Notes: generated by a model from the letters alone, not told the origin. A DNA stretch of 64,000 nt from Planctomycetaceae bacterium (GCA_002724415.1 PBOU01000106.1:14824-78823), one strand, 5' to 3'. Counted from the first letter of the stretch, positions 22,081-29,486 are shown. Program-made: numbers and translations.

Positions 22081-22542
22081 ATGGTAGTGGCAGCGCCGCT
22101 GGGCGCGAAGAGGAGCGAAAGGGAGGAACAGGTCATCAAGGGTCCCGGAATTCGGCTCGATCTCGACGTGCGACGCGTCTGGCGCTGCCCCAAGTGCCAA
22201 CGTGTGCTGAAGACGGCAGGGCACATCACCAGCCGGCGTTGTCCCATCGACGATGAGTTCATGCAACTCGACGACAGTGCCCAGCGAGCTGCCAGGCGAT
22301 TCACCTTTCCATCCATCACGATTGAACAGGTCGACGAAGTCGACACGATCGATGTCGAACATCCCGACACAGAACAACCCGTCACCGATGATGATCGACC
22401 CCGGAAACAATCGCGAAAACAAAAACGTCGACATCGACGGAGTCATGACAATGACGGTGCGGAGATGGACGACGCCGAGCCAACCTCGCCAGATGACGAG
22501 CCGGATACCGACACAGAAAACCAGCCGAGCCTGGAAACGTGA
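22081..22542 (+). CDS. Small hypothetical protein with CPxC motif and highly charged tail
   Basis: ATG start and GC-rich third positions. Contains [21 protein letters not shown] and a C-terminal [44 protein letters not shown] tail. Its TGA overlaps the GTG start of the giant uvrA-like gene (GTGA at 22539-22542). Confidence 0.6.
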
Positions 22543-25500
22543 GCCGGACACGGCCGGGCAAGGGATTGGCAGTCGAAGCGGCGGACATCGAGATCCGTGG
22601 CGCCCGCGAACACAATCTCCGTAATGTCAGCCTCACGCTGCCGCGCAACCAACTGATCGTGATGACCGGCGTGAGCGGATCGGGGAAAAGTTCCCTGGCA
22701 TTTGACACGCTCTACGCGGAAGGGCAACGGCGTTACGTCGAGAGCCTCTCGAGCTACGCACGCCAGTTCCTCGGGCAACTGCCCAAGCCGGATGTCGACC
22801 GGGTCAGTGGCCTGGCCCCGTCAATCTCGATCCAGCAAAAGTCGGCCAGTCGGAACCCGCGGAGTACCGTGGGAACCATCACCGAGATCCAGGACTATCT
22901 CCGAGTCCTGTTCGCCCGGGTCGGTCGGCCTGGTTGTGCCCGTTGCGGCCGCGAGATCCAGGCCCAGACCACCGAGCAGATCGTCGAGTCGATTGGCGGG
23001 CTGCCGACTGGAACCCGATTCAGCATCCTGGCCCCGTTGATTCAACAGCAAAAGGGCGAGTACCGCGACCTGTTCGACGACCTGTTGAAACAGGGATTTG
23101 TCCGGGCTCGCGTCGACGGCGAAATCGTCTCGTTGACCGACAACCTCGGCCTCGACCGCCAGATGCGACACACCATCGAACTGGTCATCGACCGACTGTC
23201 GGCGGGCCGGGGAGGTCGCTCACGATTGGCAGAGGCAGTTCAGACCGCCCTGAGACTTGGCGCGGGAACTCTGCTGCTGGCCGTCGCAACCAACGCCGGA
23301 ACCGTTCCCGGTCAAGATTCTCCCGGGACCAGCACATCAACCGACAAGCTCTACAGTTCGCTCTACGCCTGCTCGGATTGTGGCATCAGCTACGAACCGC
23401 CCACTCCACAGTTGTTCAGCTTCAACAGCCCAATGGGAATGTGCCTGGATTGCAACGGGCTGGGCCGGCGGCACGAGTTTCTTCCGGACCAGCTGGTGAC
23501 TCAACCGGGCAAGTCCCTGTGGACGGGTGCCATCGGGTTGCTGGGAGCCGTCCGGCGCATCGGCCGCTGGCGGCGGCACATTTACCAGGGTGCCGCTGCG
23601 GCCATCGAGGCCGATCTCCAACTCGAACCCGATGCGGTCATGAAAACGCCCTGGAAGGATCTCTGCGAGGAGTCTCGACGGCTGATCCTTCACGGAACCG
23701 GCGACCGGCATATCACCTTCTCCTGGCGTTACCGTGGCGGGGTCTGGAAGCACGGCGGCACGTTTGCCGGCGTGATCCCCAAGCTGCTCGAGTCGTACCA
23801 CAAGACAAACAACCCCATGCGACGCAGGCAGTTGGAGAAGGCGATGCAGTTCACCGACTGCTCGACCTGCCGGGGAACACGGCTCAACCAGCAAGCCCAG
23901 GCCGTCACGATCACCACGGCCAACAACCACTTCGGCCGGACAACCGCCCGCCGACGTCGCAGCCTGCCGGAAGTCTGCGGAATGTCGATCGGCGAAGCGG
24001 CCGCGTTCTTCGAGGACATCGAACTCGATTCCACCGGACAACTGATCGCCGTCGATGTGCTCAAGGAAATCCGAGCCCGGCTGGGATTCCTGCTCCGCTG
24101 TGGACTCGACTACCTCGCCCTGGACCGATCCGCCCCGACCCTCTCCGGCGGCGAAACCCAGCGTATCCGCCTGGCCGGACAAATCGGCAGCGGGCTGGTC
24201 GGTGTCGTCTACGTCCTGGATGAACCCTCGATCGGACTCCACCCACGCGACAACCAGTTGCTGCTGGAGAGCCTTGCCGATCTGCGGGACCAGGGCAACA
24301 CCGTGATCGTGGTCGAACACGACGAGGAAACGATACGAGCAGCCGATCACGTTGTCGATTTCGGACCCGGTCCAGGAATCCGTGGTGGCCGCGTGGTGGC
24401 CGAGGGATCGGTCCGGGAGGTCGAAACGAACCGGCACAGCGTGACCGGACGGTACCTCAGCGGGGTCGATTCGATCCCGGTCCCACAACAGCGACGGGCC
24501 ATCGGCAAGGATCGCCTGACCGTCAAGGCCGCGCGACACAACAATCTCCGCGGCATCAACGTGCCGATCCCGCTGAAAGCCTTCGTCTGCATCACCGGGG
24601 TCAGCGGATCGGGCAAGAGCTCACTGGCCAACGACATCCTCTGGCAGGTGCTCAACCGCGAACTCAACTCCGGCAAGGGCGAACCGGGTTCACATCGCGA
24701 GGTGTCCGGACTCGAACATCTCGATCGGGCCATCAACATCGACCAGGCGCCCATCGGCCGCACCCCACGCTCCAATCCCGCCACATACGTCAAGCTGCTC
24801 GACAGCATTCGTGACCTCTACAGCAAACTGCCCGAGGCACGAGCCCGCGGCTACAAGCCAGGCCGATTCAGCTTCAACGTCAAGGGGGGCCGGTGTGAAG
24901 CGTGCGAGGGTTACGGAGCAACCCGGCTCGAGATGGATTTCCTGGCCGACATCTGGGTCACCTGCCCGGTCTGCGAGGGCCGACGATTTCACCACGAGAC
25001 CCTGGAGGTCCGGTTCCGGACGAAGAACATCGCCGAGGTTCTCGAGATGGACGTGCAGGAAGCTCTCGAGCATTTCCGCAATCATCCGAGGGTGTCACGA
25101 CTGCTCGGCACGCTCCGCGAGGTGGGACTCGATTACCTCAAGCTCGGACAACCCTCCCCGACCCTCTCCGGAGGCGAGGCCCAGCGAATCAAGCTGGCCC
25201 GGGAACTGGGCAAGCGATCAACCGGAAACACCATCTACCTGCTCGACGAACCCACCACCGGCCTGCACTTCGCCGACATCAGCAAGCTGCTGGACGTGTT
25301 GCACGGTTTCGTCGACGAGGGCAACACCGTGCTGGTGGTCGAGCACAATCTCGACGTTGTCAAAACCGCTGACTGGGTAATCGACCTGGGTCCCGAGGGC
25401 GGGGCCGGTGGTGGACGGATCGTGGCAGCCGGACCGCCTGAGACCATTGCCGACTGCCCAGAATCGCACACGGGACGGGCACTCGCCCCACTGCTTTCCG

Positions 25501-28500: not shown

Positions 28501-29486
28501 TCACCGAAAAGCGCGACGGGGATCTCGACTTCCGCAAGATCGGTCGCGACACGCGGATGCCCTGGGAACAGGACGGACGACGCTGGCACACCAGTGATCG
28601 CATCGCACACAACGGTCAGCCAGCGCGATGGGAGGGAACGGTTCTCGCCAGGATTCTTGACCGGCTTGAGGACTCCGACGATTTGCTCCCCCCCGACTTC
28701 AATCACCGCAGCGTTGTCACGATCACCGGGCCGGTGAAAAAAGACGGCTGGTTTTTCCACGCCCTGACCGGAAGCGAGTGGCTGGGGACATTGAAGTTCC
28801 GGGTCCGCCGCAACACGTTTCGCCAGGAGGAACTCGCACCCCGCCTGGATCTCAAGCCACTGGACGACATCGACGAGTTGCCGGTTTATGGCCGCGACTC
28901 GCGAGTGCGGGTCAAGAACATCAAGGGACCCTGGCAGGAAGTGACACTGAAGGTGCATTGGCTCAGCGAGATTGATACTCCTGAATTCGAGGCGTTTCTG
29001 GTCACCGCGCGCGATGCCTTCCTGGAACAAACCACCCGTTCCCGGGACAACACGGCCGACCTGGAGCCGTGGAAAGTACTGGGACGAAAGTGGCACCGCC
29101 TGCAAAAAGGCTTTCCGCCCGGCAAACGAGTGAGGTGGCCCGCAGAACTGGTCGACTTGCTGGCCGACCAGCTGCAGGCCGTTGGACCAGATGTCGTCGT
29201 CGACTGGACCGGTCGCAACTCGGTGTCGTTCCGGTTGACCCCCGGGGGTCCGGTCTGGGCCCAACTGTGGACCAAGCGGGTTCAGTCAGTCGAACTGTTC
29301 CTGCTGGGGCCACCCGGCACGATTCCGCTGGGCCGCGTGGCCGGGCTGGGGCAAGCTCGTGAGATCACCGGTTACAAGGGTGGTCGTGAAGCGGTCAAGA
29401 TCTCGTTCAATTCGCTCAAGCAGGCACGCCACGCCGACGTCGAACGACTCTTGAGAGACCACCGCGCCGGCTGCGGATCCTCGTGA
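22539..29486 (+). CDS. uvrA: Tandem-duplicated UvrA-like excinuclease ATPase (two complete UvrA units plus a repeated C-terminal module), 2315 aa
   Basis: Four Walker A motifs ([38 protein letters not shown]). Four ABC signatures ([48 protein letters not shown]). Four Walker B motifs. UvrA hallmark [24 protein letters not shown] occurs twice. All three Zn modules are present in each unit. Confidence 0.9.
22587..28380 (+). repeat. Intragenic tandem duplication: UvrA unit 1 (about 22587-25470) and unit 2 (about 25587-28380)
   Basis: N-terminal motifs lie exactly 3000 nt apart ([11 protein letters not shown] at 22587 vs [11 protein letters not shown] at 25587; GACACGC.. of [11 protein letters not shown] at 22704 vs 25704). 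The units have diverged at both nucleotide and protein level. Confidence 0.85.
28557..29483 (+). repeat. Two-fold internal repeat in the C-terminal extension of the UvrA-like protein (about 28557-29063 and 29064-29483)
   Basis: [29 protein letters not shown] aligns with [29 protein letters not shown]. Co-linear matches continue further along: [55 protein letters not shown]. Confidence 0.6.

Follow-up and report, generated by a model that had tools for sequence, protein, structure and literature searches.

A planctomycete UvrA in a single chain with two diverged halves and a tandem C-terminal module

Canonical UvrA is a protein of about 940 amino acids (aa) that acts as a homodimer. A long-standing question in nucleotide excision repair (NER) is how the symmetric UvrA2 or UvrA2B2 complex turns asymmetric at a lesion, and what share each of the four ATPase sites and the two insertion domains takes in this process (PMC11985968, PMC6486640). 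The locus described here raises that question in a special form, as it codes for two complete UvrA units in one polypeptide: are the two linked halves still equivalent, or has each been given a role of its own? The gene lies in a stretch of 64,000 nucleotides (nt) from a Planctomycetaceae bacterium (GCA_002724415.1 PBOU01000106.1:14824-78823), which we call the window and to which all nucleotide positions refer. We describe the fused protein and its family, the differences between its halves and its C-terminal tail, and then weigh how such a protein may work.

Two complete UvrA units in one chain

The gene is a complete open reading frame (ORF) at 22539..29486 on the plus strand, with a GTG start and a TGA stop, which codes for 2315 aa (ORF listing and translation). 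There are no internal stops in the translation, and the closest upstream in-frame stop is found at nt 22494. An initial annotation, made from the sequence alone, had proposed that this one ORF holds two full UvrA units. ORF listing, translation, NF001503, Pfam and BLASTP all confirm this. Against the NCBIfam model NF001503 (TIGR00630, the UvrA equivalog, with a cut-off of 1147 bits) unit 1 reaches 1317.4 bits (model positions 4-941 of 943) and unit 2 reaches 1243.6 bits (positions 4-930). Pfam finds two UvrA_inter (PF17760) and two UvrA_DNA-bind (PF17755) stretches in the chain, and unit 1 aligns end to end with all solved class-I UvrAs, among them the PDB entries 9gxk, 3zqj, 2r6f and 3pih (1050-1077 bits). 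When aa 1-1000 are compared with the remainder of the protein using BLASTP, units 1 and 2 show 46% identity over 995 aa (E = 0). Together, these matches are well outside what chance would produce.

Unit 1 (aa 14-987; 22578..25499, plus strand, as are all features of the gene) comprises two domains for nucleotide binding, NBD-I together with NBD-II, and three Zn modules. Its UvrB-binding domain (aa 133-281; 22935..23381) lies between the Zn1 CxxC pairs, with PF17760 at aa 143-248, and its insertion (DNA-binding) domain (aa 302-444; 23442..23870; PF17755) lies between the Zn2 CxxC pairs. A poorly conserved, basic linker (aa 988-1013; 25500..25577) leads to unit 2 (aa 1014-1976; 25578..28466). 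Here the UvrB-binding domain occupies aa 1133-1273 (25935..26357), as located by the second PF17760 stretch and the CxxC positions, and the insertion domain aa 1294-1422 (26418..26804).

A regex scan of the translated ORF finds each ABC motif four times: Walker A at aa 44, 687, 1044 and 1662, the LSGGE signature at aa 535, 876, 1500 and 1851, the DEP Walker B at aa 561, 903, 1526 and 1878, and likewise four H-loop motifs (EH[DN]). The CxxC motifs number 12, six per unit (aa 133/278, 302/441 and 786/809 in unit 1; aa 1133/1270, 1294/1419 and 1761/1784 in unit 2), making up three Zn modules in each unit. The N-terminal landmark motifs are located at aa 17 and aa 1017 (nt 22587 and 25587), and a second pair at aa 56 and aa 1056 (nt 22704 and 25704). 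The initial annotation had placed these landmarks correctly to the base, and the four Walker A, four LSGGE and four Walker B motifs and the CxxC pairs of all three Zn modules that it listed are all found. The chain amounts to two complete class-I UvrAs joined by a flexible linker, and carries four intact ATPase sites and two UvrB-binding domains. Each unit has the equivalog score, the ABC motifs, the domains and the Zn modules of class I; the one departure is the length, with a single 2315-aa chain of two non-identical units in place of a chain of about 940 aa.

Conservation was determined from an alignment of 117 full-length homologues. The number of invariant positions is 344 out of 974 in unit 1 and 313 out of 963 in unit 2. 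The Lys of Walker A, the Ser of the signature, the Asp/Glu of Walker B and the His of the H-loop are unchanged in 115-117 of the 117 proteins, and 20 of the 24 Zn-ligand Cys residues in all of them; C136 and C281 are replaced by Ser in seven homologues and C1273 by Val in one. The Zn3 hairpin EM[DH]FL is invariant in both units. The residues Y62, Q65 and F66 of Ct-UvrA, located in ATP-binding domain I, probe DNA at the dimer interface, which is formed by the surface of this domain (PMC12796330). Mapped onto the fused protein, these correspond to Y73/Q76/F77 in unit 1 and Y1073/Q1076/F1077 in unit 2, all of which are invariant across the family. The linker is 18-63 residues long in the family, contains no invariant position and is basic and rich in R, A, K, S and G. 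Because the catalytic and most of the Zn residues are invariant and the halves are equally conserved, neither half is a decayed copy, and purifying selection acts on both units with equal strength. The claim that both units keep their ATPase, Zn, UvrB-binding and insertion-domain elements is borne out by the alignment, in which neither unit has lost its ATPase or Zn ligands.

Independent assemblies contain the same uninterrupted protein, among them P0001 (95% identity, 2315 aa), P0002 (84%, 2311 aa) and over 100 more. Searching 5.8 billion proteins yields over 116 full-length homologues, 2250-2500 aa long and 60-95% identical, all of which carry the annotation excinuclease ABC subunit UvrA. 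Named homologues come from complete genomes of cultured Symmachiella dynata, Maioricimonas rarisocia, Gimesia maris, G. alba, G. chilikensis and G. fumaroli; these three genera, all Planctomycetaceae, are the nearest named ones (63-66% identity). Sufficient upstream DNA is available for 45 loci, and in at least 30 of these the C-terminal tail described below belongs to a single frame that spans 2334-2555 aa and has four Walker A motifs. The argument that the divergence of the halves speaks against an assembly artefact is upheld: since the halves are diverged (46% identity) and the independent homologues are many, such an artefact can be ruled out.

The fusion as such is not new. Two uvrA in one ORF, about twice as long as the E. 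coli gene, have been reported for the planctomycete Tuwongella immobilis and its relatives together with a figure of the Pfam architecture (Fig. 13 in Front Microbiol 2021;12:643045, PMC8567305). The same study detected UvrA, UvrB, UvrC and UvrD in the proteome of Tuwongella immobilis by liquid chromatography-tandem mass spectrometry (LC-MS/MS). It treats the fusion as the UvrA of Planctomycetes, in one sentence and the figure, without functional or mechanistic characterisation. A full-text literature search, with several relevant reviews outside its reach, turned up neither a mechanistic nor a structural study of a double UvrA, and no survey of double-UvrA domain diversity. Consequently the architecture cannot be called novel, as the initial annotation had it, though the 2021 report contains no functional work.

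Nor are duplicated UvrAs rare, as had also been supposed. Unit 1 was compared with 1.84 billion representatives using phmmer, and the counts given here refer to the best 150 clusters (P0241-P0390). Two UvrA units are found in 113 of these 150, and the exact three-part form (two units and tail) in at least 564 species genomes. The doubles fall into at least eight domain variants. Both units are domain-complete in 34 of the 113, as in the window protein; unit 2 is without insertion domain in 39; 23 are double class II, with the UvrB-binding domain missing from both units; seven consist of class I followed by class II; and the remaining 10 show other combinations. Among the named doubles are proteins of Chlamydiales (1885 aa), Chloroflexota (1915 aa) and Ca. 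Kinetoplastibacterium (1809 aa). A neighbour-joining tree of the 258 units is too poorly rooted to count duplication events, with few single-unit sequences among the best 150, and a nearest-neighbour statistic was used instead. For 100 of the 113 doubles, unit 1 is nearest to the unit 1 of another protein, and likewise unit 2 to another unit 2; in no protein are the two halves nearest to each other. The fusions are old, because each unit has its closest relative in other proteins and never in its own partner half. The window protein scores 1321.7 bits against NF001885 (PRK00635, a model of 1809 positions for "excinuclease ABC subunit A"), which is below the cut-off of 3054, and its best stretch covers just model positions 6-973. 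This model we take to be the Chlamydiaceae type.

Overall, the architecture is already known, annotated and widespread, and it is the normal UvrA form of Planctomycetes. Being annotated in hundreds of genomes and already in print, the fusion itself amounts to little as a discovery. The interest lies in the undescribed asymmetry of the halves and in the orphan tandem tail.

Asymmetry of the halves and the C-terminal module

The clearest difference between the two units is seen in their insertion domains, whose charges were computed across the 117 homologues. The unit 1 insertion domain is basic: its isoelectric point (pI) is 9.6 in the window protein, and in the family its median net charge is +6, with a positive value in 97% of the members. 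The unit 2 counterpart is shorter and neutral to acidic, with a pI of 4.65 in the window protein, a median of -2 and a positive value in just 29%. The suggestion of the initial annotation that the halves of a fused protein are free to evolve asymmetrically is thereby borne out. A second difference concerns the motif G342-R-W344-R-R-H347 (GRWRRH) in unit 1, of which G, W and H are invariant in 117 out of 117 homologues. Tyr323 of M. tuberculosis UvrA, a conserved residue of the clamping helix, is aligned to W344 in unit 1 and to a variable Leu (L1335) in unit 2, an assignment of modest confidence, as the helix lies in a variable region where a shift of one or two residues is possible.

These differences can be set beside the homodimer on damaged DNA, where a "recognition-ID" holds the flipped lesion and a "support-ID" is freed once the first UvrB binds (Genta et al., PMC11985968). 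How the symmetric UvrA complex picks a side is an open question. Judged by their sequences, the fused proteins appear to have fixed this choice between recognition and support side in the chain itself. Such a fixed choice agrees with the loss of the unit 2 insertion domain in the 39 other double-UvrA clusters mentioned above. The insertion-domain asymmetry between the halves has apparently been undescribed so far.

The second distinctive element is the tail that follows unit 2 (aa 1977-2315, 339 aa; nt 28467-29483). In it a domain of about 170 aa is duplicated in tandem, the halves being homologous (E = 2e-5). According to the internal repeat and an AlphaFold2 model, repeat A covers aa 1977-2150 (28467..28988) and repeat B aa 2151-2315 (28989..29483). 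Each repeat bears an invariant motif of the type PWxxxGR[RK]WH, and repeat B is basic, with a family median net charge of +7. The AlphaFold2 model, built from an alignment of 70 sequences, has a predicted local distance difference test score (pLDDT) of 92.4 and a predicted template modelling score (pTM) of 0.66, and folds the tail into two alpha-beta(3)-alpha-beta(2)-alpha domains.

Relatives of the tail are not found. The sequence yields no matches in Pfam, NCBIfam or PDB and only weak HTH_32 hits in nine of the 70 members, and the model has no Foldseek matches at E <= 1e-3 in PDB and BFVD. Weak, domain-sized Foldseek likenesses (template modelling score of about 0.5 on the target) to type III secretion chaperones and to the C-terminal "double-wing" domain of T4 MotA, which binds double-stranded DNA, were considered and are not assignments. 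Our best guess is that the tail serves as an extra DNA- or partner-binding element. An entire bacterial class has, as an unassigned part of its core repair enzyme, a tandem domain that folds confidently in the model and is without detectable relatives.

The tail is present in at least 564 genomes (one per GTDB species, scanned with the C-terminal module) and occurs only fused behind a double UvrA. Genes for a stand-alone tail were considered and rejected: the short proteins concerned are fragments at contig ends or frameshift pieces behind a double uvrA. The listed genomes with a tail are labelled Planctomycetaceae, Pirellulales/Pirellulaceae, Thermoguttaceae, related Planctomycetia, or Planctomycetota at the phylum level. 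The lone exception (L019, JBLMWR010001103.1) is a metagenome-assembled genome (MAG) labelled Deltaproteobacteria, where a tail with 52% identity is located on a contig of 8.9 kb; this is probably a binning error and not horizontal transfer. Among the 150 best clusters the tail is confined to two, and the sister cluster P0244 (1941 aa) is without it, which places the addition of the tail within Planctomycetia.

Proposed mode of action and its alternatives

Taking these observations together, we read the fused protein as the UvrA of Planctomycetia, a head-to-tail fusion that would serve UvrABC nucleotide excision repair as its ATP-driven sensor of damage. We consider it fairly probable that it works as an intramolecular, asymmetric single-chain UvrA2-like saddle, in which one chain acts with two UvrB and unit 1 forms the recognition side. 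Units 1 and 2 would fold back on each other into the head-to-head assembly of the ordinary UvrA homodimer, and a single polypeptide would take the place of UvrA2, with two UvrB docked to it. Neither concentration nor nucleotide would govern dimerisation any longer, and each half would be able to specialise. Of the insertion domains, that of unit 1 would be the "recognition" one and that of unit 2 the "support" one, to be released when the first UvrB binds. The asymmetry that homodimeric UvrA takes on only at damaged DNA would in this way become fixed in sequence.

Several points weigh against this single-chain reading. The argument from linker length is qualitative only, as the distance between the C-terminus and the N-terminus in the UvrA dimer does not enter into it. 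The alignment at the clamping helix, as said, may be shifted. In addition, uvrB and uvrC are not adjacent to the fused uvrA, and the absence of a second uvrA is established for the 64-kb window only.

The family-wide asymmetry in charge and motif provides a concrete prediction that can be tested. As a tool the protein is of some value: with a natural single-chain UvrA2 whose halves have diverged, sites and insertion domains can be mutated individually, and heterodimers need not be engineered. A bolder version can be formulated as well, which we consider unlikely: the protein would be an obligately asymmetric sensor, in which unit 1 recognises the lesion and unit 2 is the first to hand over to UvrB, while the W/H/R-rich tail would be a new DNA- or partner-binding domain, giving the lineage an NER step that is absent from model bacteria. 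If true, the choice of strand and side, which is stochastic in the homodimer, would be encoded in the primary sequence.

The alternative that survives best is a dimer of doubles, where two chains associate (1:1' plus 2:2', or swapped as 1:2') to give eight nucleotide-binding domains; two DNA segments might be bridged in this way, or as many as four UvrB loaded. The sequence holds nothing that forbids such a dimer. In both units the surface of ATP-binding domain I, which makes up the dimer interface, is retained (PMC12796330, together with the conservation in the family), and the shortest linker in the family, of 18 aa, might not permit the fold-back. However, a consistent and complementary asymmetry of the insertion domains is what a pair of unit 1 and unit 2 on one DNA predicts, and the loss of this domain from unit 2 only, in 39 clusters, fits a heterotypic pair. 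As a general rule, moreover, tandem fusions of normally homodimeric proteins usually form intramolecular pseudo-dimers, as for example full-length ABC transporters compared to their half-size relatives. Weighing both sides, we regard a dimer of doubles as possible, though rather doubtful.

The fused protein might also be an accessory paralogue, similar to class II UvrA2, DrrC or Ecm16, that exists beside an ordinary uvrA elsewhere in the genome. The search for a second uvrA, which covered the 64-kb window, leaves space for this, no NER genes adjoin the fused uvrA, and the unusual tail suggests an added function. Against it, both units have the UvrB-binding domain and Zn1 that are missing in class II (PMC9328131), and each scores above the UvrA equivalog cut-off. 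Also, the fusion is taken as the UvrA of Planctomycetes in the 2021 proteome paper (PMC8567305) and is kept in at least 564 species genomes, and an accessory role is therefore quite improbable.

Finally, the idea that one half is a degenerate, non-catalytic scaffold (a pseudo-enzyme), or that the ORF is an artefact joining two adjacent genes, might be derived from seven related MAG loci where the gene is in pieces (L001, L002, L017, L033, L055, L078 and L080), but it is essentially refuted, since these broken genes show overlapping frames, as is typical of frameshift errors, the catalytic residues are invariant in both equally conserved halves, and the ORF is uninterrupted in at least 30 independent genomes, including complete chromosomes of cultured strains.

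Locus and comparison with known systems

The neighbours of the fused uvrA code for an M28 peptidase, a VCA0040-like membrane protein, hemB, an isochorismatase and an FGE-sulfatase protein. Neither uvrB nor uvrC is found in the window. Synteny holds only among the closest relatives, and no conserved NER context was found. Directly upstream lies an ORF of 153 aa (22081..22542, plus strand), whose product has a Zn-ribbon-like segment (CxxC...C) and an acidic tail rich in Lys/Arg. The TGA stop of this ORF overlaps the GTG of uvrA by 4 nt (GTGA). It has no Pfam match. Using tblastn, a similar ORF is found directly upstream of uvrA in five related loci (L003, L004, L006, L017 and L076), and we tentatively consider it part of the uvrA locus. 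The sole other tblastn match to UvrA in the window, at about 61862-62080 on the plus strand, covers an ABC-ATPase signature and Walker B with 35-37% identity over about 70 aa, and presumably belongs to an ABC transporter ATPase.

Some related assemblies show how the gene may be misrepresented in databases. On two Mb-scale MAG contigs from ENA assemblies (L001 at 3420-10122 and L002 at 3452-10854) the double uvrA is called as two to three consecutive genes, and these split calls have led to spurious stand-alone "excinuclease ABC subunit A" database proteins of 370-620 aa. In the closest genome (L003 at 4754-11047; 90% identity in the tail) the open frame is just 2097 aa, with an in-frame stop or frameshift near the 5' end. 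This shortened frame is likely an assembly error, given that both P0001 (95% identical) and the window gene are intact.

With respect to known systems, the window protein is closest to the planctomycete fused UvrA reported earlier (PMC8567305): it has the same two units in a single ORF, about twice the E. coli length, and comes from the same phylum, and it belongs to that group. The earlier account leaves out the mechanism, the asymmetry of the halves and the C-terminal tail. The double UvrAs of other lineages have the tandem two-unit layout in common with the window protein. In contrast, they are without the C-terminal module, and have lost the unit 2 insertion domain in 39 clusters and both UvrB-binding domains in 23.

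Class II UvrA (UvrA2, DrrC, Ecm16) shares the double ABC ATPase with insertion domain and Zn3 finger. It is without the Zn1 module and the UvrB-binding domain and acts outside NER (PMC9328131), whereas both units of the window protein have the Zn1 CxxC pairs and PF17760, which places them outside class II. The canonical class-I homodimers (E. coli, G. stearothermophilus 2R6F, T. maritima 3PIH, and M. tuberculosis 3ZQJ/9GA2 and the 9GXK series) share all domains and motifs with each of the two units, which align with them over their whole length. Compared to these homodimers, the window protein differs in that its units are linked and non-identical (46% identity), that their insertion domains differ in charge and in a key motif, and that a tail of 339 aa has been added.

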